A stretch of 64,000 nt of DNA from NCBI GenBank assembly GCA_038230095.1, contig JBBRNT010000001.1:112848-176847 (forward strand), written 5' to 3'. Both the position numbers and the translations under genes were made by a program. Each line of letters begins with the position of its first letter. The stretch's first letter is position 1. This document shows positions 38,944-49,452 of this stretch, in pieces. This stretch comes from Candidatus Saccharimonadia bacterium (lineage in GTDB: Bacteria > Patescibacteriota > Saccharimonadia > UBA4664 > JBBRNT01). Below the pieces are notes generated by a model. That model did not search any database and had not been told where the DNA came from. It was given only the letters and a program-made list of their open reading frames with translations.

Positions 38944-39669
38944 ATGAAGCAAAGACTAGATCTAGTACTGGTAGAGCGCAGTTTGGCGCCAAGTCGCACA
39001 ATTGCTGCCGCCATGATTATGGCGCGCCAAGTGAAGACAGGCGAGCGTATTCTCGATAAGCCCGGGCTCAACATTGATACAGAGCTGGAGCTGACCGTGA
39101 CCGGGCTACCGCGCTACGCGTCGCGAGGCGGTGACAAGCTGGCCTCGGTGGCAGGGGAGCTAGGCTTAGACCCAGCTGGACGGGTAGTGCTAGATGTAGG
39201 CTCATCGACCGGAGGCTTTACCGACTATTGCCTACAGCATGGAGCCACTAAGATCTACTGTGTGGACGCTGGCAGTAACCAACTAGCCTATAAGCTGCGC
39301 GGTGATGAGCGGGTAGTAGTGATGGAACGGACAGACATTCGCGAAGTCGGTGAGCTACCAGAAAAGCCGGATCTAGCTGTCATAGATGTGTCCTTCATCG
39401 CACTGTCTCGGGTGCTGGCTGCGACTGCACAATTAATTAGTTCAGATGCTATCATTTATGCTTTAATGAAGCCACAATTCCAAGCTGGAAAAGACATTGC
39501 CGATAGGTTCAAAGGTATTATTTCGGACGAGAACGTCCGCCAAAACATTATTGCCGACTTTGAGACGCTAGCAGCCGACGACTTTGAGATACTTGGTGCA
39601 GCGGATTCGGCAGTGCACGGAGCCGAAGGGAATAGAGAACGGTTCTACGCGCTGCGCTCGAAGCACTAG
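38944..39669 (+). CDS. tlyA: TlyA-family rRNA 2'-O-methyltransferase (S4 domain plus FtsJ-like MTase)
   Basis: S4 RNA-binding N-terminus (RLDLVLVERSLAPSRTIAAAMIMARQV) and the SAM motif DVGSSTGGFTDYCLQHGA. Confidence 0.85.
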   Translation: MKQRLDLVLVERSLAPSRTIAAAMIMARQVKTGERILDKPGLNIDTELELTVTGLPRYASRGGDKLASVAGELGLDPAGRVVLDVGSSTGGFTDYCLQHGATKIYCVDAGSNQLAYKLRGDERVVVMERTDIREVGELPEKPDLAVIDVSFIALSRVLAATAQLISSDAIIYALMKPQFQAGKDIADRFKGIISDENVRQNIIADFETLAADDFEILGAADSAVHGAEGNRERFYALRSKH

Positions 39670-40034
39670 ACCTGGTTCTTACCAATCTTACCCAGGTGGG
39701 TGTCCTGGAAGCCTGTGTCGAACTTTAGCCCGTACCCGAGGGCTCGGTCCATAGCTATGTGAGCGGCCCAAATGATAGAAAAGGGGATGAGGCTCGTAAC
39801 CCCGAGCAGAGCGACCAATAGGAGCGCGACGGGAGCGCTATAGTTGTGGCCTAGATTGTATACTACTGCGCCGACTCGAGGGTTTACCAAGTAGCCCAGC
39901 ATAGATACGTCTACCGTGAACAGTAATAGCACGAATACCAGCCAGCTGTAGTGAGCCAGGCCGAATAGCCAGAGAAGGGCGATGAAAATGGCAGTGGACT
40001 CAACGCGCTCAAATAGGGTGGGAAGGTGTTTCAT
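39666..40034 (-). CDS. small integral membrane protein (3-4 TM; DUF4260-like)
   Basis: Hydrophobic helices plus HIAMDRALGYGLKF. ATGA overlap with the upstream gene. Confidence 0.55.
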   Translation of the reverse strand: MKHLPTLFERVESTAIFIALLWLFGLAHYSWLVFVLLLFTVDVSMLGYLVNPRVGAVVYNLGHNYSAPVALLLVALLGVTSLIPFSIIWAAHIAMDRALGYGLKFDTGFQDTHLGKIGKNQV

Positions 40035-40774: not shown

Positions 40775-41846
40775 TGAAGCGGAACTCAACTACATCGCCG
40801 TCACGCATGACGTAGTCTTTGCCCTCAAGACGCATCTTACCAGCTGCCTTTGCTGCTGCTTCTGAGCCGGCAGCCATAAGATCCCCGTAATTAACGATTT
40901 GGGCCTTGATAAAGCCTTTTTCGAAGTCTGTATGGATAACGCCGGCAGCCTGGGGAGCAGTGTCACCCTGGTGGATAGTCCAGGCGCGCACCTCATCTGG
41001 TCCGGCGGTGAGGTAGGTCTGCAAGCCGAGCGTCTTAAACCCAAGGGTAACCAGCTGCTCTAGACCTGAGGCGTTCTGACCTAGGTCCTGGAGCAGCTCG
41101 GCAGCGTCGGCTGCTTCCAGTTCTGAGAGCTCGGCCTCTATCTTGGCGCAGAGGAAGACAGTGGGGGCTGGCGATACAAGCGCAGAGAGCTCTGCCTGCT
41201 TCGCTGAATCGGACAGATCACCTTCGTCCATGTTGAAGACAATGATAAATGGCTTGGCGGTGAGTAGCTGCAGATCCTGTAGCTCGAGGAGCTGCTCCGG
41301 CTTCAGGAACGCCCCAGCCAGCTGGCCGCTATCCAGCGCAGATACCAGCGCTTGAAGCAGATCGCGGTAGGGGACGGCCTTGGGATTGCTCTTGGCTTCC
41401 CCCTGAGCTTTGGCTAGGCGATTCTGCGTAGTAGCTAGGTCGGCCAGGATTAGCTCGGTGTTGATTGTCTGGATGTCCGACAGGGGATCTAGCTTGTCGT
41501 CTACGTGAATAACATTTTTATCCGAAAAGACCCGTACAACCTGACAGATGGCATCGGTTTCTCGGATATGAGACAGAAACTTGTTACCAAGACCCTGGCC
41601 TTCTGAGGCGCCACGGACCAGCCCGGCAATGTCGACAAAGGTGACAATAGCGGGGGTGATCTTCTTGGGATCATACAGCTCAGCTAGCTTAGCGAGGCGG
41701 GTGTCGGGCACCGGAACAATACCCACATTGGGGTCAATGGTGGCAAAAGGGTAGTTGGCTGCAAGGACATTATTACCCGAGAGAGCGTTGAAGAGAGTGG
41801 ACTTACCAACGTTTGGTAGGCCAACGATGCCAATAGATAAACTCAT
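40767..41846 (-). CDS. ychF: ribosome-binding ATPase YchF (Obg-like GTPase family)
   Basis: G1 GIVGLPNVGKSTLFNAL, YchF-type coiled insert, and C-terminal TGS domain. ATG at 41846; the upstream ORF extension lacks an SD. Confidence 0.9.
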   Translation of the reverse strand: MSLSIGIVGLPNVGKSTLFNALSGNNVLAANYPFATIDPNVGIVPVPDTRLAKLAELYDPKKITPAIVTFVDIAGLVRGASEGQGLGNKFLSHIRETDAICQVVRVFSDKNVIHVDDKLDPLSDIQTINTELILADLATTQNRLAKAQGEAKSNPKAVPYRDLLQALVSALDSGQLAGAFLKPEQLLELQDLQLLTAKPFIIVFNMDEGDLSDSAKQAELSALVSPAPTVFLCAKIEAELSELEAADAAELLQDLGQNASGLEQLVTLGFKTLGLQTYLTAGPDEVRAWTIHQGDTAPQAAGVIHTDFEKGFIKAQIVNYGDLMAAGSEAAAKAAGKMRLEGKDYVMRDGDVVEFRFNV

Positions 41847-41995
41847 ATGCCTATTATACCAGTAAACACTCGTTTTCGAAGGACGGAAGCACAAGCAAAT
41901 GTCTGCCATTTTAACCTTGTTATGGTTGTAATAATGGCAAAACGGCTGTATAGTCGCCTCAACACCCACCCCCTCGACTCTGGAAAGGAGTCATC

Positions 41996-44107
41996 ATGGA
42001 TGTGCAATTTGAAAATACCAAGTCCTACTCAGCACGGCGAGCACTGATGCTCCTCGTGCCTTTCTTGTTCTCTATCATTGCGATAGGTACGCCGCAAGCG
42101 GCCCACGCGGATGCTGCGCCGACCTCTCGCTATGTGCCGCTGACACCAGCGCGTATCTTGGATACGCGGGATGGTACAGGTACTGGCACGGTTGCGCCGG
42201 TACGGACAGACTCAGCTATAAGCCTGCAAGTGACGGGCCGTGGCGGCGTTCCAGCCAATGCCTCGGCGGTGGTCATGAATGTGACAATCGCCAATCCGAT
42301 TGGCTCTGGTTATGTCACAGTCTGGCCACATGGCGTGTCGCGCCCGGTAGTTTCGAGTGTCAACTATTCGGGCCCTCGAGATGTTCAGGGCAACGAAGTT
42401 ACAGTGTTGCTCGGTAACGATGGTCAAGTCGATCTCTACACCTTGGTCCAATCTGACATGGTGGCAGACGTCATGGGCTACTACGAGCCAATCAGCACAC
42501 CGGTGTCCTCTGGCCGTTTCATGCCACTTACCCCTGCTCGTATCTTGGATACGCGTAATGGTAACGGCGCTCCAGTAGCCAAGTTGCCCCAAGGTGGCAT
42601 GATTACCCTGCAAGTAACTGGCCGCGGTGGCGTTCCGGCCAGTGGTGTTTCGGCGGTGACCTTGAATATAACCGCAACCAATGCTGCCGAAGGCTACGTT
42701 ACGGTTTGGCCGGCAGGTCAGCCAATGCCTACAGCCTCTGTTCTAAACCCAACCGCTCAGCGCACGACGGTCCCTAATAAGGTGACGGTGCCCGTAAGCG
42801 GGGGCGGGCAGATCAACTTGTATACGCTCAATCCGACTGATTTGATTGCCGACGTGAGTGGCTACTACACGGATAGTAGTGCTAGTCCGTCCATGGATGG
42901 CTTATTCGTTGCGTTGACGCCCGCGCGGGTGCTCGATACCCGCAAAGTCAATCCGTTTCTTGCGCCTGGAGCTCAGGGTACAGCGACGCTGCGATTCGGC
43001 GGACTTGGTGGCGTTCCTACTACCAATGTCGCTGCAGTGTTGTTCAACCTGACGGGGACGCAGAGCCAGAGTGCTGGCTTCGTTACCGTCTATCCGGCTG
43101 GCCAGGCTCGGCCCGAAGCCTCGAACTTGAACCTGATAGGGCCTGGGGATACCAAGGCCAACGCGGTAATCGCGCCGGTGAGCTCCGAAAACGCCGGCGT
43201 CACAATGTTTACCATGCCCAATGTGGATCTGGTGGGGGATGTGAGCGGCTACTTCACCGGCAGCGCCACCGCGGTCGGCCCGCCACCAACAGGCTGCGGC
43301 TATACTGCTACCGTTGACAACGGTGGCCAAGGAAGCCAAGCCGAACTGGTATTGCACAACACTACGACCCAGATAGACGCGGTTTTGGTCACTGGCGTGA
43401 CTGCGTACGACTCGCAGCCATGGATTACTTATGACTGCCAGTACATGTGGTATACGACTTTCCCAAATGGGCTGAATACCGAGCCGCTCGAGAAGCTACG
43501 GTTCATTGCTACCGGCCAAGAAGTGGCGCCGCGCGCAGGCCCGGGCTACTCCTACGACTTTGTGGCTCGGGATAACAGCGAGGCCATGTTCTATATAGAG
43601 GGTAATGGTCTGGAGTGGCGGATTACTGAGTCTGCAATTCACTCGAACCCACTGGGCCGTACCATTACCCAAACTGCAAACGGCTTCAACCTGTACGATC
43701 TGACTGTGGGCCGGTATTCGAATGATGTTTGCTATTCGATTACCAAAGGGACGCCGCAAAAGCAATTGGAGTGTCGGGACATTACAACAAGCGTAGTAAC
43801 AACCCAGCTGGCGAGCTCCTCCAGCGACTATCAGGGGGCGCTTAGCCCCGATGGTCGGTATCTGGCATTCCTGCGCAGCAGCAACTCTGGTTCACGAGTA
43901 ATGTTGCTGGATCGCTCTACCAATACCATTTCTGACCCCTTTGGATCAACTTCACAGCACCCCACTTGGGATGCGGCAAGCCGGCTGGTGGCCAGTGTGT
44001 TTGTGAACGGTCAGCTGGACCTGTTTGCGAGAGATATTGCCACGGGCGCGGTGACTCAATTGACGAATACGCCAGCCCTCAACGAGTACCAAACGGTCAT
44101 GCCCTGA
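41996..44107 (+). CDS. secreted protein with three tandem about 115-aa repeats (LTPARILDTR...VTGRGGVP...DVSGYY) and C-terminal TolB/PD40-like beta-propeller repeats
   Basis: N-terminal signal peptide (LMLLVPFLFSIIAIGTPQAAHA). Three clearly alignable repeats. The C-terminus has SPDGRYLAF and similar PD40 motifs. AAAGGAG lies before the ATG. Confidence 0.6.
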   Translation: MDVQFENTKSYSARRALMLLVPFLFSIIAIGTPQAAHADAAPTSRYVPLTPARILDTRDGTGTGTVAPVRTDSAISLQVTGRGGVPANASAVVMNVTIANPIGSGYVTVWPHGVSRPVVSSVNYSGPRDVQGNEVTVLLGNDGQVDLYTLVQSDMVADVMGYYEPISTPVSSGRFMPLTPARILDTRNGNGAPVAKLPQGGMITLQVTGRGGVPASGVSAVTLNITATNAAEGYVTVWPAGQPMPTASVLNPTAQRTTVPNKVTVPVSGGGQINLYTLNPTDLIADVSGYYTDSSASPSMDGLFVALTPARVLDTRKVNPFLAPGAQGTATLRFGGLGGVPTTNVAAVLFNLTGTQSQSAGFVTVYPAGQARPEASNLNLIGPGDTKANAVIAPVSSENAGVTMFTMPNVDLVGDVSGYFTGSATAVGPPPTGCGYTATVDNGGQGSQAELVLHNTTTQIDAVLVTGVTAYDSQPWITYDCQYMWYTTFPNGLNTEPLEKLRFIATGQEVAPRAGPGYSYDFVARDNSEAMFYIEGNGLEWRITESAIHSNPLGRTITQTANGFNLYDLTVGRYSNDVCYSITKGTPQKQLECRDITTSVVTTQLASSSSDYQGALSPDGRYLAFLRSSNSGSRVMLLDRSTNTISDPFGSTSQHPTWDAASRLVASVFVNGQLDLFARDIATGAVTQLTNTPALNEYQTVMP

Positions 44108-44131
44108 CCAACTTTCGACCGTCCCCGGCAG

Positions 44132-45676
44132 CTACGCTGCCGGGGACTTTTCGTTGCCATTTCGGCGGTAGGCGTAGAACGCAAGGCAGGCTAGTCCTAG
44201 TAGCTGGGGCCAGATAGTCCATTCGCCTAGCCGAGAGTAGGGCGTGAGGGTGGTTTGTGGCTGGATGCGGGCACTGATCACATCTAGCCCGTCGATGGGG
44301 GAAGAGGCAATTAATTTGCCATTAGCATCCAGGACGTAGCTAGCACCTGCCCGCGCTGACTGGATAAATGGCCTGGCATTCGCGATAGCTATGAAACGAC
44401 TAAAGTGCTTTGATTGTTCGAAGTAGATTGGTGCATTGCTGAAAATACCCAGAGCGGCACTATTGGTAAGTACTTGTGCGCCACCACGAGTGAGCTTTTG
44501 GTAGAGGTCTGGTGCTATCACTCCAGAGCAAGCAAGGCTGCCAATTTCGGTATTTCCGGCAGAGGCAAATGGGTGTGGGGTAATTCTGGTGCCAGTAATT
44601 GTGCGGTATTTTTCGAAGTAATCGACTAGGTCTCTGAACCCCAGTCCAAGGGCCACCCACTTCACTACGTAGGGCAAGAACTCACCAGTAGGGACTAGGA
44701 AACTCTTAGGTTGTTCATAGCTGATATTGCCGGCGGAGTCTCTGACAACAATGATGTTTGACAGGGTATTTGCGGAATTGCTATCTTGGTCATCCAATAC
44801 GGTGCCATCGGTCCGGGCTAGAGCAGCTAAATTCTGGTCGCTAGTTGGCTGCTTGCCGTCGAAGAACCGGGAGTACTCTGTGAGGACGAGTAGCTGGGCG
44901 GGTTGCACAGACTTGCTTGATAGAAGTTGTGTAAGATTGGCCTGGTAATTGGTATCAGACTCACCAAGCTGCAGCACATTTACGGAGACTTGCCTTGTGT
45001 GCTGGAGTGGCCATACCCAGCCGAGCACGGAAATGGCAACCAATCCAGCCAGCATTAAAGTAGCAGTACGCCACTGTCGGTTCAGCGACATGTAGAGAGT
45101 AATATTGGCCATAACTACGAGTAGACTTAGACCAAATAAGCCAACAATCCTTGAGGCAGGCCCCAGCCAGGTGGTAGCTCCAGCCAATCCGAGCACCCCA
45201 AAATTCCAGTAACTGCCTAGGCTGGCACCCGGTCCAGCAGTGAAGATCGAGAAAAGCCAACTACGGGCGTATTCACAGAGCACCCATAAGACCGCAAAGG
45301 TGGATAGCCGGGCCAGGCCGGCGGGTAGTTTGCTCGCAATGTATTTGTACCCCAAGCCCAGTATCATGAACCCGCTGGATAAAAATAGACAGGCAAGCAG
45401 CCACACAATACCAATGAGACTCTGCACGACCCAGCCACTGGTATTACCCCAAGTAACTGGATTGGTATTGAGCATCCAGCTACAAGCCAGGCAACAGTAG
45501 ATAAGGCCAGTGACCCAAAACAATAGGATACTGCGCTTACCCTGGAATTTTTCTAAGAATATGAACAACGGAATAAGACAAAGTAACACAAGCCACTGGA
45601 AATGGGGGATACAGAATGCTGCTGTGGATAGGGTAAGCCACGCAGATAGGAGTAAAAATTGTTTGGTTCGATGCAT
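44132..45676 (-). CDS. apolipoprotein N-acyltransferase-like protein (polytopic N-terminus plus carbon-nitrogen hydrolase domain)
   Basis: 6-8 TM helices followed by a CN-hydrolase-like domain. Candidate catalytic Glu in LVLTEY and Cys in GSLACSGVI. Confidence 0.55.
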   Translation of the reverse strand: MHRTKQFLLLSAWLTLSTAAFCIPHFQWLVLLCLIPLFIFLEKFQGKRSILLFWVTGLIYCCLACSWMLNTNPVTWGNTSGWVVQSLIGIVWLLACLFLSSGFMILGLGYKYIASKLPAGLARLSTFAVLWVLCEYARSWLFSIFTAGPGASLGSYWNFGVLGLAGATTWLGPASRIVGLFGLSLLVVMANITLYMSLNRQWRTATLMLAGLVAISVLGWVWPLQHTRQVSVNVLQLGESDTNYQANLTQLLSSKSVQPAQLLVLTEYSRFFDGKQPTSDQNLAALARTDGTVLDDQDSNSANTLSNIIVVRDSAGNISYEQPKSFLVPTGEFLPYVVKWVALGLGFRDLVDYFEKYRTITGTRITPHPFASAGNTEIGSLACSGVIAPDLYQKLTRGGAQVLTNSAALGIFSNAPIYFEQSKHFSRFIAIANARPFIQSARAGASYVLDANGKLIASSPIDGLDVISARIQPQTTLTPYSRLGEWTIWPQLLGLACLAFYAYRRNGNEKSPAA

Positions 45677-45730: not shown

Positions 45731-46297
45731 ATGAAGCTGTCACGATACAAGCTTGGAGTCATAATAGTTCTCGTCGTAATCGCTGCTGTCGGTGGTGCGC
45801 TATTTTTTCGTTCAGTCGTCTTGAATGCTCAAAAGAAGGCGAACCAACGCCACGGTGTGCAGCCAACAAAGGCCGAGGAGGGCATTGCCGTCGTGGCAGC
45901 TTTGGTTGCTAAGGATAGCGCCTCGGCAGCGGAGCTGAAACAGGCCAAAACCGACTTGCTTAATCAGCTGGCCAAAGCTACAACCATTCCGGATAAAGTG
46001 GCAATATTGGATACGCTCACGGTTGTTTGCCAAAAGCAGAAGGATCTGGTCTGCGCTAACGAGTACCAAGTACAGGTTTTGCAACTGGACCCCTCCAACT
46101 ACGATAATCTAGTTTCTGCGGGGGAGGCTGCACAGGCTGCGGGCAAGTATGCCGACGCATTAGCTGATTTCCAGAAAGCATTAACGGCTCTTGATACAAA
46201 GTCGAAGAATTACTCATACATGAAAGACTACGTGGACGGCAAGATTACTGAGCTACTGGCGCTGATTGCAAAACCGGCGACTAAGGGCAAATCATGA
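45731..46297 (+). CDS. membrane-anchored TPR-like protein
   Basis: N-terminal TM helix and Ala/Leu-rich helical repeats. ATGA overlap with the downstream giant gene. Confidence 0.5.
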   Translation: MKLSRYKLGVIIVLVVIAAVGGALFFRSVVLNAQKKANQRHGVQPTKAEEGIAVVAALVAKDSASAAELKQAKTDLLNQLAKATTIPDKVAILDTLTVVCQKQKDLVCANEYQVQVLQLDPSNYDNLVSAGEAAQAAGKYADALADFQKALTALDTKSKNYSYMKDYVDGKITELLALIAKPATKGKS

Positions 46298-49200
46298 AGC
46301 GCCTACTCCTACTTATCCCAGTATTATTTGCTACCTTGGTCATGTCCGGGGCTGCACATGCGGCTGCCTGGAGCTTGACTGATACACTGCCAGACCCTGC
46401 ATCCAATGGCCCTGAGATTTACCTAGACATAGCCAAAAGCGGCTGCGGGATTAGGCTGGATGCCCCTATAAGCTATACCAAGGCCTATTATGCAAACGGT
46501 ACGGTAGACTTTAAAGTAAATATAATTGATGGCGACTATGGCGCGGACGGGGCATCGGTGGACTACGGCGGCTGGGGCGGCAATGTAAATCGCGATGCTG
46601 TCTACGATCTATACCCGCTAGACGCGAACGGGAACATTCAGGGAGGCAAGGCACCTGGTGGAGCTGCAAGCGCAGTAGCTGGTCGTACCAATGCTACGGG
46701 TGACGCTGTTTCGCGACACCTAGGCAATGAAATGCCCACTTCCGGCTTTGAGGTGAACTTGACGGCCGAAAACCGTCAACCAACCCAGCGGATTACTAGC
46801 CTAGGCTTATATGGCGTGCTAATTGTAGCCTACTGGTATAACAATAGTTTCTGCGGGCGCATCAATGGGTATAAGCTGCAGGCTATTGGTACTACTGGCG
46901 GCAAAGGTGGTGCTGGCAAATACGCATATATGGGCTATGTAGCCTCTTTTGATGATCCATTCCAGAACGGCACAGGAAGCTATCCGCAAGCTGTTGGCGC
47001 CATGCCTCTATCACTCAGTGGCAAGAAAACCATTGATTTCAAAAGTGGCGTACCATGCGACTTTGAGACGAATCCCGCCTATAACAACACGCTACATCTG
47101 CGATGGCAGGATGCAGATGCCGGAAGTAGGCCTGGGTCCAGTCCGGCGAACGCGGGAATTGGTTTCACTATTACCCAGTACCGAACTGATGCAGGCGGCA
47201 ACCTAGTGCAAGTCGCAGCATTTTCAATAACGGACCCAGCAGATAACTTTGCCCTTGGTGGTAATGGCGAATTCCGCGACTTGGCGTTTACTAGGGCTGG
47301 CGGCGGGACGTACACAGCGGCGTTATCCGGTTCGAATATTCCAGGATCAATTGATGTAACCGGAACTATCGTGGCCCAAAGCGGAGTACAGATAGCAATT
47401 CAGAATAATGATAAATTCGAGTGGAAATGGACCCAAGTTCTGGTTGATAATCATCTGCAGTTGTGGGCACCATTTGATACTATATTTGGCTTTATAAATT
47501 GTACTCCTGCGAGGAACGACTCCATTTGCAGCTGGTCAGGAGGCATACCCGGCAGCGTTCCGGCGGGGAGCACCTTTAACGCCGGTATAACCATGCAAAA
47601 CAGTGGCACTACCACCTGGACGCCTGGGCCTGCCGGCGTGGTAAATTCGTACCTCTTAGGTACAGCGCAGCCACACGATAATACGATTTGGGGGCCAAGT
47701 AGGTATGGGCTGCCATTTGCGGTGGGACCCGGCGGGTCCGTCACCTTCAACGCCACGTTTACCGCACCAACCGCACCAGGAGACTATCCGTTCGCGTTCC
47801 AGATGCTGCAAGAGGGGGTGGAGTGGTTTGGTGGGACCTGCTTTACTACGATAACTGTAAGTGCCATTAATAAAGCCAGCTGCTCAGTTATATTCACCGA
47901 TAGAGCCAGCTACGGCGCCGGTGACACTATAAATGCGGTGGTGCAGTTCTTTAACTCCGGCTCAAAGGACTGGTGGTCGGGCGCAAACTACCACATGGGC
48001 GAAATAGACGGTGTAGGATGGGTGCCGGGCGCCAGAGTGTGGATGCAGCCGAACGGGTATGGTAACCCCACGCCTGAGTGGGTCAGACCAGGACAGTACG
48101 CGACATTCAGCTTTGCAGTAACAGCACCGGCGACGCAAGGCACTTATCCGTTCTCCTGGCAGATGGTTCAAGACGGCGTGGAGTGGATTACCGGGGTGAA
48201 CCCAGTTTGTAGCCTAAATATCCCCGTGACGCAGCCATTCCAGTACACGCTCGATGAGTCCAGCTCCAGCGCTGTCTGGGGTGACCCTACATATCCTGTA
48301 GGCAATTTGGATCTGACCTCGGGCACCATTAATATGACATTCCTTATAAATCCACGGGCCGTGGCGCTGGCATTTGCTCGCACCGGTGACGCTTATAATC
48401 TAGCGCCCTACCTCTTCGGTGGGGGTGGCAGTGTGGCACAGTCTGGCACCTGGGGGCCAGGCCCTTGGAACGGTCAGCCTGGAATAGCACCGGGCGGGGG
48501 CGCCTCGTACTACGTACGCTACAATGTGCCGCGCACCACCCCAGATGGAACCGTCTTCTGTGTGTACTCGGGTATTACGCCGCACGCTTCGTTTGATGGC
48601 GGCCAGCTGCTCTCAAACATCCTTTGTTATACCATTGCGAACCCTCGGTATCCTTATCTGACCACGAGCCAGGGTGATGTACACGCTGGTGCTGCGCCAA
48701 CCTGTACGCTTCCTGGAAGTACGCCGAACAATATTAAGGGCGTGACCGTCCTGAACCAAGGCTCCGTTGGCCAGTTCATAGTGTCGGCTGGTGGGACTAT
48801 TACCGACTTCTCGTCAGGTGGAGTACAGGGGAGTAGTGGGCAGAGTCTACCCGGCTATGGGACCATCTGTAGGCCAGACCTAATAGCCCGGGCCCAGCAG
48901 TACCGCACTGACTACGGCTCTGTTGACCCCGGTGCGTCCTTTGCCCCAACTGCCTACGTACCCGGTACGCTAGCGAGCCGCCTGCTGTACCACGTGGGCC
49001 CGGTAACGCTACAGGCCGGTACCATCTCTGGACGCTATAGCCTAGTAGTTATTGGCGACCTTACCATCAATGGCAACTTGAGCTATGACGGTACACCCCG
49101 GGCGCTGGTGGACCTGCCTTCCCTGGGCATAATTGTGACCGGTAATGTATATATAAGCCCCGGAGTAACTACCATGGTCGGTGCAGTGTTTGCCAACGGC

Positions 49201-49452
49201 ACCATAGACACCTGTAGCCCTTACCAGGCAACGAATTGCAATAACTCCCTGTTTTTGGACGGCTCCATGTACGCCAAGAGCTTTAATTTCAAACGCACTG
49301 GCAACGGAATCCAGGGTGGAGTAGACCAGGGCTTTGCCGAGAATATCCATGGCTCAACCCGTCTGTACATAGCGCCACCACCGGGCTTCAAGGACCTAGC
49401 ACCGATCCAATCTCAGAGCCAAGCACCAAACGAAAAACCACCATCCTACTAG
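46294..49452 (+). CDS. large secreted surface protein (1052 aa) with two tandem FW/NBR1-like Ig domains and a Gly/Thr-rich beta-rich C-terminal region
   Basis: Signal peptide MKRLLLLIPVLFATLVMSGAAHA. Two segments with the four-Trp pattern (MQNSGTTTW...FTAPTAPGDYPFAFQMLQEGVEWFG, and FFNSGSKDWW...VTAPATQGTYPFSWQMVQDGVEWITG). C-terminus has GNVYISPGVTTMVGAVFANGTI beta-helix-like repeats. Confidence 0.6.
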   Translation: MKRLLLLIPVLFATLVMSGAAHAAAWSLTDTLPDPASNGPEIYLDIAKSGCGIRLDAPISYTKAYYANGTVDFKVNIIDGDYGADGASVDYGGWGGNVNRDAVYDLYPLDANGNIQGGKAPGGAASAVAGRTNATGDAVSRHLGNEMPTSGFEVNLTAENRQPTQRITSLGLYGVLIVAYWYNNSFCGRINGYKLQAIGTTGGKGGAGKYAYMGYVASFDDPFQNGTGSYPQAVGAMPLSLSGKKTIDFKSGVPCDFETNPAYNNTLHLRWQDADAGSRPGSSPANAGIGFTITQYRTDAGGNLVQVAAFSITDPADNFALGGNGEFRDLAFTRAGGGTYTAALSGSNIPGSIDVTGTIVAQSGVQIAIQNNDKFEWKWTQVLVDNHLQLWAPFDTIFGFINCTPARNDSICSWSGGIPGSVPAGSTFNAGITMQNSGTTTWTPGPAGVVNSYLLGTAQPHDNTIWGPSRYGLPFAVGPGGSVTFNATFTAPTAPGDYPFAFQMLQEGVEWFGGTCFTTITVSAINKASCSVIFTDRASYGAGDTINAVVQFFNSGSKDWWSGANYHMGEIDGVGWVPGARVWMQPNGYGNPTPEWVRPGQYATFSFAVTAPATQGTYPFSWQMVQDGVEWITGVNPVCSLNIPVTQPFQYTLDESSSSAVWGDPTYPVGNLDLTSGTINMTFLINPRAVALAFARTGDAYNLAPYLFGGGGSVAQSGTWGPGPWNGQPGIAPGGGASYYVRYNVPRTTPDGTVFCVYSGITPHASFDGGQLLSNILCYTIANPRYPYLTTSQGDVHAGAAPTCTLPGSTPNNIKGVTVLNQGSVGQFIVSAGGTITDFSSGGVQGSSGQSLPGYGTICRPDLIARAQQYRTDYGSVDPGASFAPTAYVPGTLASRLLYHVGPVTLQAGTISGRYSLVVIGDLTINGNLSYDGTPRALVDLPSLGIIVTGNVYISPGVTTMVGAVFANGTIDTCSPYQATNCNNSLFLDGSMYAKSFNFKRTGNGIQGGVDQGFAENIHGSTRLYIAPPPGFKDLAPIQSQSQAPNEKPPSY

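Follow-up and report, generated by a model that had tools for sequence, protein, structure and literature searches.

Within a 64,000-nucleotide stretch of the genome of a Candidatus Saccharimonadia bacterium (contig JBBRNT010000001.1 of assembly GCA_038230095.1; the whole stretch is called the window here), the gene at positions 41996..44107 of the forward strand encodes a secreted protein of 703 amino acids, exactly the open reading frame (ORF) that a first-pass annotation of the letters had delineated. Directly behind its signal peptide this protein, called the target below, carries three tandem repeats that appear to form one unit and that define a very large, uncatalogued family centered on Actinomycetota of high guanine-plus-cytosine (GC) content. 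The novelty is that a surface module of three terminal repeats has a new fold and turns up in an unexpected lineage; the missing catalog entry for the family is well established, and we infer the function of the module and its role toward a host. The reading that we favor, poised evenly between being right and being wrong, is that a secreted protein of the Saccharibacteria (TM7) carries an actinobacterial-type surface-binding or anchoring triplet, which was acquired horizontally and was possibly repurposed for host attachment.

The triplet and its family

The similarity among the three repeats of the target far exceeds chance. When the repeats were cut out and compared pairwise by BLASTP, repeats 1 and 2 were 52% identical (E 6e-37), repeats 2 and 3 were 44% identical (E 2e-28) and repeats 1 and 3 were 38% identical (E 9e-23), and the remaining 278 residues of the protein showed no similarity to the repeats or internally. 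The first-pass annotation had described three copies of a repeat of about 115 residues. The repeats are real, but their boundaries as defined by hidden Markov models (HMMs; residues 43-168, 169-296 and 297-425) give a unit of about 125 residues, and the number of copies is fixed rather than free: three in 114 of the 120 best homologs, four in 4 and six in 2. A search with a single-repeat profile, which is expected to favor proteins with many repeats, likewise returned among its top 150 matches mostly proteins with three repeats, along with a handful with six and a few with four or five, six being the maximum.

The repeats also keep their individual identities. Position-specific profiles built from 80 homologs placed 71 of 99 held-out repeats correctly, against 33 by chance, and each of the three target repeats scored highest against the profile for its own position. 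Fixed counts together with positional orthology imply that the triplication is ancient and has become fixed, which is not the behavior of a free-running repeat. As judged by these sequence comparisons, the unit of the family is the triplet, and each of its three positions is orthologous from one family member to the next.

The motifs quoted in the first-pass annotation do recur in all three target repeats (LTPAR[IV]LDTR, G.GGVP, N.T, G[YF]VTV[WY]P and D[LM][VI].DV.GY[YF]), and they coincide with invariant or near-invariant columns of an alignment of 80 family proteins. In each repeat of that alignment P..R..D.R, a P and D..G are invariant, with GGVP, N.T, SNLN and an N nearly so. Every family-invariant column is kept in the target, as is every element of the family signature for a repeat (P-x-R-x-L-D-T-R, G-G-V-P, N-x-T, T-x-x-P, S-N-L-N and D-x-x-G-[YW]-[YF]). 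The recurrence of the same polar residues in each repeat would fit three equivalent ligand sites.

AlphaFold2, given residues 40-430 and an 80-sequence alignment, modeled the triplet with confidence (mean predicted local distance difference test score, pLDDT, 96.2; predicted template modeling score, pTM, 0.93) as an all-beta structure with about 7-8 strands per repeat, and a full-length run gave the same result. Because a pTM of 0.93 over three domains indicates a rigid mutual arrangement, the triplet is predicted to be one rigid all-beta unit of jelly-roll repeats. A Foldseek search of 350,542 PDB chains and of BFVD found only local jelly-roll similarity to the triplet, with template modeling (TM) scores of at most 0.24 (probability 0.6-0.98, 130-400 columns, TM 0.15-0.24, root-mean-square deviation about 20 A, 6-13% identity). 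The proteins matched in this way include CBM22 tandems, domains of glycosidases that resemble carbohydrate-binding modules (CBMs), Vip3/Cry domains and the STIV A223 'triple jelly roll', and also the single-chain C1q head, Bdellovibrio fibre tips, phage tail proteins and picornavirus polyproteins. No PDB or BFVD structure reproduced the three-repeat arrangement.

The first-pass annotation could not assign the repeat to a named domain, and neither could we. Pfam-A (2025) and NCBIfam 20 contain nothing that matches residues 1-585 even at E<=10, no relative was found among PDB sequences with either the single protein or the 80-sequence profile, and searches of the literature for the motif, or for an actinobacterial wall-binding domain of three repeats, brought up nothing of relevance. 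The family itself is large. A word-indexed search returned at least 6,888 significant clusters at 90% identity, with E down to 1e-229, and an exhaustive HMMER search with the single-repeat profile against 1.84 billion representatives (50% identity clusters) returned 33,606 proteins at E<=1e-3, of which 10,635 reached E<=1e-30. In the matches listed, the aligned part is roughly half of the query, typically 53-60%, and corresponds to the triplet; the sole exception is P0001, a protein identical to the target. PGAP labels the family's proteins after their other domains only, or as 'hypothetical'. A family of more than 33,000 clusters with no Pfam or NCBIfam entry and no PDB sequence relative represents a sizeable annotation gap in actinobacterial exoproteins, and its definition as a fixed triple jelly roll would offer curators a clean family and experimenters a compact, confidently modeled construct.

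Within the family, the triplet is a terminal module joined to many different partners. Among 119 homologs it occupies the extreme C-terminus in 77, follows the signal peptide directly in 28 and stands alone in 8, and the target fits this pattern in being secreted with its module at one end. An LPXTG motif occurs in 3 of the 119 and a C-terminal transmembrane segment in none. A Pfam-annotated partner domain is present in 61 of these top homologs, and about one third of the annotated partners are beta-propellers (RCC1, PQQ/BamB-like, PD40, NHL, WD40/delta-60, FG-GAP and GSDH). The remainder include arrays of immunoglobulin (Ig)-like domains (Big_3_5, He_PIG, fn3, PKD and DUF11), enzymes (Amidase_2, GH25 lysozyme, GH43, Glyco_hydro_cc, subtilases, cutinase, phosphoesterase and PhoX), beta-helix, CBM_5_12 and non-enzymatic CAP domains and, as toxin partners, RHS-associated cores. 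One Streptomyces protein named N-acetylmuramoyl-L-alanine amidase has the triplet at its end. Conjugative plasmid pB of Paenarthrobacter ureafaciens (locus L092, 4818-9317) encodes a 1,499-residue RHS core protein with an N-terminal triplet, which looks like a polymorphic toxin with the triplet as its surface-targeting part; a 65-residue ORF 3' of this gene is a likely immunity gene. Two proteins from contigs of about 70% GC, P0002 (L007, 10001-13513) and P0003, have two consecutive triplets, hence six repeats, followed by an RCC1 propeller, and show faint Pfam matches to S_layer_C and Peptidase_A4 over the repeats.

The taxonomic distribution bears out the statement of the first-pass annotation that similar repeats occur in actinobacterial proteins: the matches are overwhelmingly from Actinomycetota, on which the family is centered. 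All seven named matches in the top 120 belong to this phylum (Acidimicrobiales, Ilumatobacteraceae, Streptosporangiaceae, Kitasatospora and Streptomyces), as do all 26 matches from a scan of 72,556 plasmids. A single-protein scan of GTDB species-representative genomes yielded four Actinomycetota and one Bryobacterales, the only taxon-labeled relative from outside the phylum, and no ortholog of the target. The 80 best metagenomic loci, located with patterns from the target's own repeats, range in GC from 0.625 to 0.77 with a median of 0.68, and there is no low-GC relative among them. The target triplet falls within the diversity of the family, with a median identity to it of 44.6% (46.5% family-wide). 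It has no near neighbor: its highest identity to any member is 50%, where 72% is typical, and the terminal branch that leads to it lies above the 90th percentile.

The target gene and its locus

The features of the gene and its immediate surroundings are as follows (positions in the window, with strand).

41926..41954, forward: candidate sigma-70-like promoter, TTGTAA-17-TATAGT; a consensus match only, one site being no more than shuffles give
41982..41990, forward: Shine-Dalgarno sequence GGAAAGGAG, 5 nt upstream of the ATG; read from the sequence and graded strong
41996..44107, forward: coding sequence of the secreted modular protein, 703 amino acids; the identical P0001 is recorded both at NCBI and in an independently made Logan assembly
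41996..42109, forward: predicted Sec-type signal peptide, residues 1-38, from sequence reading and hydropathy; predicted cleavage between AHA and DA, without a lipobox
42122..42499, forward: predicted jelly-roll repeat 1, residues 43-168; top score with the position-1 profile, pLDDT about 97
42500..42883, forward: predicted jelly-roll repeat 2, residues 169-296; top score with the position-2 profile
42884..43270, forward: predicted jelly-roll repeat 3, residues 297-425; top score with the position-3 profile
43271..43756, forward: orphan region, residues 426-587, with 4 Cys, probably beta-rich; no Pfam match, pLDDT <35
43757..44080, forward: PD40-like segment, residues ~588-695, about 2.5 blades, by Pfam PD40, partial TIGR02800 and hhalign
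44121..44157, forward: intrinsic terminator, a 12-bp stem with 10 GC pairs and then a T-tract; overlaps the 3' end of the convergent lnt-like gene
44132..45676, reverse: Lnt-like gene, LNT_N plus CN_hydrolase; shares a variable slot with the target

Since the target gene is divergent from ychF and convergent with the Lnt-like gene, it constitutes a monocistronic unit, and the GC-rich terminator hairpin begins 14 nt past its stop codon. The ychF ORF was listed with a GTG start at 41969 (reverse strand), but its relatives align only from residue ~41-44, and the true start is probably the ATG at 41846 (MSLSIGIVG). With that start, the two genes are separated by a 149-bp divergent intergenic region that holds the promoter candidate of the target.

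The proposed signal peptide was supported by a rule-based re-analysis, consisting of direct reading and a Kyte-Doolittle scan, which located a basic n-region (K9, R14, R15), a 15-residue hydrophobic core (residues 16-30) and a cleavage site after AHA at 38/39. In the AlphaFold2 model this region is a short helix of low pLDDT, and the triplet starts 5 residues past the predicted cleavage site. There is no Cys in residues 1-430. Because the signal region lacks Cys, the signal is of the Sec/signal peptidase I type and not that of a lipoprotein; classification of the target as a bacterial lipoprotein was rejected, as no lipobox Cys closes the signal peptide. Neither a lipobox nor an LPXTG motif nor a transmembrane anchor is found in the target.

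The C-terminal half had been described as a TolB/PD40 propeller tail, and only the PD40 part of that description stands. One PD40 repeat (PF07676; residues 607-632, ALSPDGRYLAFL) scores 23.7 bits, against a gathering score of 20.9, when the C-terminal 135 residues are scanned alone; in the full-length scan the same repeat scores 18.6 bits, under that threshold. Alignment by hhalign with three PD40 propellers covers residues ~588-695, about 2.5 blades, at a probability of 91%. The TolB equivalog TIGR02800 matches residues 585-696 with 27.9 bits (E 1e-6), far from its cut-off of 343.15 bits, and only over model positions 167-281 of 418; given this score and the lack of a TolB N-terminal domain, identification as TolB was rejected. 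The TolB propeller has six blades. Closure of a propeller takes 6-7 blades, about 2.5 are detectable in the target, and the AlphaFold2 model of residues 426-587 is unusable. This orphan stretch of about 160 residues, which precedes the blades, has no Pfam match; in the full-length AlphaFold2 run its pLDDT is <35 and that of the PD40-like hairpins 50-69, and the model is unusable for residues 434-621. A search of 5.8e9 proteins gave no real homolog of the C-terminal 283 residues, only three marginal PD40 matches, and the complete architecture is therefore unique to the source genome. 'PD40-like tail' is a fair label for residues ~588-695, and a full TolB propeller is unsupported.

The window itself belongs to the Saccharibacteria. 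It carries genes for DnaG, PolA, PNPase, RNase J, MurB, FtsK, RecA and YchF as well as a type IV pilus operon. Its RecA shares 81-87% identity with proteins of Candidatus Saccharimonadales, Saccharimonadia and Saccharibacteria, and gene order on both flanks of the target agrees with TM7 contigs. No tRNA genes or Rfam families (at the gathering threshold) were detected across its 64 kb.

The target was said to lie two genes upstream of a giant surface protein and the type IV pilus operon, and it does stand there, relative to a 1052-residue surface protein and pilM/pilB/pilT/pilC. The adjacency is not conserved, however. In the closest TM7 relative (L009; RecA 87%) the order is FtsJ, EEP (reverse), YchF (reverse), a 196-residue gene, a 940-residue gene and PilM, such that ychF abuts the surface-protein/pilM block, whereas in the window the target and the Lnt-like gene lie between the two. 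We therefore rejected the idea that the target belongs to the type IV pilus locus as a conserved component, and the positional argument for an envelope role is weak. The slot next to ychF contains a Fic pair and small ORFs in a second relative (L010, 15700-18217) and a serine recombinase with helix-turn-helix genes in a third (L011, 15211-19502), the latter content suggesting an integrated element. By tblastn, neither the target nor lnt could be traced in these loci of the three nearest TM7 relatives. The ychF-adjacent position is a variable hotspot in Saccharibacteria, and the target is an accessory gene in this variable slot. The Lnt-like gene has the lowest GC of the neighborhood (0.51). 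The idea that the target is a lipoprotein substrate of this enzyme was rejected for want of a lipobox, and with the target not a lipoprotein, a functional link between the two genes is not needed.

Two other genes of the region deserve mention. The 1052-residue secreted protein encoded directly upstream of pilM (46294-49452, forward) contains an N_BRCA1_IG Ig-like domain. Only its residues 597-1052 are conserved, at 40% identity to the 940-residue protein in the equivalent position of L009, and its N-terminal half is divergent, as for a variable adhesin. A 122-residue hydrophobic ORF between ftsJ and the EEP-family gene (39666-40034, reverse) was not matched by tblastn in the three related TM7 loci; it is possibly a further small accessory insertion.

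Composition bears on the age of the insertion. The window has a GC content of 54.7%, and GC at third codon positions (GC3) is 0.61 in the target, compared to 0.58-0.64 in the neighboring housekeeping genes; a recent transfer of the target gene was rejected on this basis. Taken with the distribution of the family, the comparison points to a TM7 lineage that acquired an actinobacterial-type module long enough ago for full compositional amelioration, and to fusion of the triplet with a lineage-specific C-terminal domain.

A proposed role in binding, anchoring and host attachment

What might the triplet do? In the reading that we favor, it would have no catalytic activity and would act as a multivalent module that binds, or anchors to, a repeating polymer of the cell envelope. 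A constant terminal triplet with swappable cargo, the lack of a covalent anchor, and the presence of peptidoglycan hydrolases and Rhs toxins among the partners together make up the pattern of SLH- or CWB2-like anchoring. The TM7 lineage would have taken up the module horizontally into the variable slot beside ychF, where it was then ameliorated and became fused to the orphan domain that ends in PD40-like blades. In a TM7 epibiont, the module would bind the envelope of an actinobacterial host, serving attachment or recognition, with the C-terminal domain as a bridging or effector part.

Cultivated Saccharibacteria grow on Actinobacteria, and several glycan-binding adhesins are required for their epibiotic growth (PMC10633639); the module may therefore bind the host envelope and aid in host recognition. 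The first-pass annotation had proposed a candidate envelope or host-interaction protein, which is plausible for a secreted product, although the argument for host interaction is stronger when drawn from a Saccharibacterium genome and from a module typical of the phylum to which all cultivated hosts belong. A strain-specific secreted protein built on a host-phylum module is a testable candidate for host recognition by Saccharibacteria.

We also put forward, tentatively, a bolder proposal: that the triplet plays in actinobacteria the part that SLH and CWB2 play elsewhere, as a general anchor to a wall glycopolymer specific to Actinomycetota, and that this Saccharibacterium captured it from a genome of the host phylum and turned it outward as a strain-specific adhesin and host-range determinant. 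If this is true, the family would add a third major class to the triple-repeat wall anchors, and it would provide a testable molecular handle on host recognition by epibionts of the candidate phyla radiation.

Several considerations weigh against the reading that we favor. Ligand binding by the triplet is deduced from the company of domains that it keeps, the host phylum is taken from cultivated relatives and not from the source TM7 itself, and, if the triplet binds the host, the protein would need some other tether to the TM7 cell. Since GC3 does not set the target apart from TM7 housekeeping genes, its transfer is argued from distribution and synteny alone, with no named donor. Most relatives carry no taxonomic label, GC is a proxy, and other high-GC phyla may contribute, as the one Bryobacterales match illustrates. 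Finally, tblastn (E<=1e-3) detected the module in 0 of 50,697 phage genomes, many of them actinophages, which gives no support to the idea that actinophage endolysins or tail fibres use the triplet. This absence mildly counters a dedicated wall-binding role, for which occurrence in such proteins might be expected.

In the main rival explanation, itself fairly unlikely, the triplet would fasten the protein non-covalently to the TM7 cell's own Gram-positive-type wall, with the orphan and PD40-like half facing outward as the functional part. Family-wide, the triplet acts as the unchanging element, and the partner, which varies, as the functional one. Propeller partners are common (RCC1, PQQ, PD40, NHL, WD40), and the target, lacking a lipobox, an LPXTG motif and a transmembrane segment, has no other anchor. 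However, the TM7 wall would then need the same ligand as actinobacterial walls, and the module is missing from the slot in the nearest TM7 relatives, as are low-GC relatives from the 80 best metagenomic loci. A general anchor would normally serve several proteins; in the 64-kb window, the stretch over which we searched for paralogs, there is no second triplet protein.

Among the lesser alternatives, a generic CBM-like module, targeting secreted proteins to environmental polysaccharides (plant, fungal or exopolysaccharide) with no link to actinobacterial envelopes or episymbiosis, seems to us distinctly improbable. It would sit well with the CBM22 tandems, CBM-like glycosidase domains and Vip3/Cry domains among the best local fold matches, with those partners that are carbohydrate-active enzymes or cutinase (GH43, Glyco_hydro_cc, cutinase, CBM_5_12), and with the lack of the module in the phage genomes searched. 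Most partners are nonetheless of other kinds (proteases, CAP, RHS toxins, peptidoglycan hydrolases, Ig-like domains and propellers), the family is strongly confined to one phylum, and CBMs, single or variable in number as they are, rarely show a fixed triplet with orthologous positions.

We hold in lower regard still the idea of a structural or oligomerization scaffold, in which the triplet would be a lattice-forming S-layer-like or capsid-like block, or a spacer, that displays its partners without recognizing a ligand. The 8 of 119 homologs that consist only of a signal peptide and the triplet could be read in this way, as could the faint S_layer_C matches on P0002 and the viral triple or tandem jelly-roll capsid proteins (STIV A223, picornavirus polyproteins) among the fold matches. 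Those fold matches all have TM scores of 0.24 or less, however, and the R, D, T, R, N, S, N and D conserved in each repeat suggest a retained binding site and not a packing core only. An assembly or binning artefact, in which an actinobacterial gene was misjoined to a TM7 contig, might be imagined for a metagenome-assembled genome and an otherwise high-GC family, but it is effectively refuted by the position of the gene amid TM7 housekeeping genes on one unbroken 64-kb stretch whose gene order follows TM7 on either side of it, by its GC3, by a C-terminal half without actinobacterial relatives, and by a separate Logan assembly of run SRR19962015, which has P0001 between the same neighbors and the same ychF-target-lnt-TPR junctions.

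Comparison with known triple-repeat modules

The closest parallels in organization are the SLH and CWB2 triplets, which anchor diverse exoproteins to wall polymers (PMC6081394, PMC4973711) and whose pattern in Firmicutes is a terminal triplet with swappable cargo (PMC6081394, PMC4973711, bioRxiv 10.1101/2025.04.02.646754). SLH (PF00395) resembles the present family in using three tandem repeats as a unit, at either end of the protein and with many unrelated partners (PMC6081394). Both have a charged motif in each repeat (TRAE in SLH, R-x-L-D-T-R here) and no covalent anchor. The differences are equally clear, since the SLH repeats are helical and of about 55 residues as opposed to predicted beta-sandwiches of about 125, SLH is found in Firmicutes and some other phyla as opposed to Actinomycetota, and ligand binding is demonstrated for SLH, whereas here it is deduced.

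CWB2 (PF04122), known from the Cwp proteins of Clostridioides difficile and from LytB and LytC of Bacillus subtilis, is an obligatory compact triplet that anchors proteases, amidases and adhesins to an anionic wall polymer (PMC4973711). Amidase-plus-triplet and protease-plus-triplet architectures are found in both families, which differ in fold, sequence and phylum, and the function of the present family is again a matter of deduction. Neither SLH (PF00395) nor CWB2 (CW_binding_2, PF04122) gave a sequence match in the target at E<=10. The triplet-RHS toxin of the present family can be compared with WapA of B. subtilis, a wall-bound Rhs protein.

On the structural side, the jelly-roll CBMs (such as the CBM22 tandem 4xup) and the C1q/TNF-like or viral triple jelly rolls (5hkj, 4ind) have an all-beta sandwich per repeat in common with the triplet, but their global TM scores are only 0.15-0.24, and none of the PDB or BFVD structures searched reproduced the way in which the three repeats are arranged. 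TolB/PD40 propellers (TIGR02800, PF07676) share with the target the 2-3 PD40 blades to which residues ~588-695 align; unlike TolB, with its N-terminal domain and 6 blades, the target has an orphan sequence in the rest of its C-terminal half. If the module is indeed a wall anchor, the principle of a swappable triplet anchor would extend from Firmicutes to Actinomycetota, on an unrelated fold.

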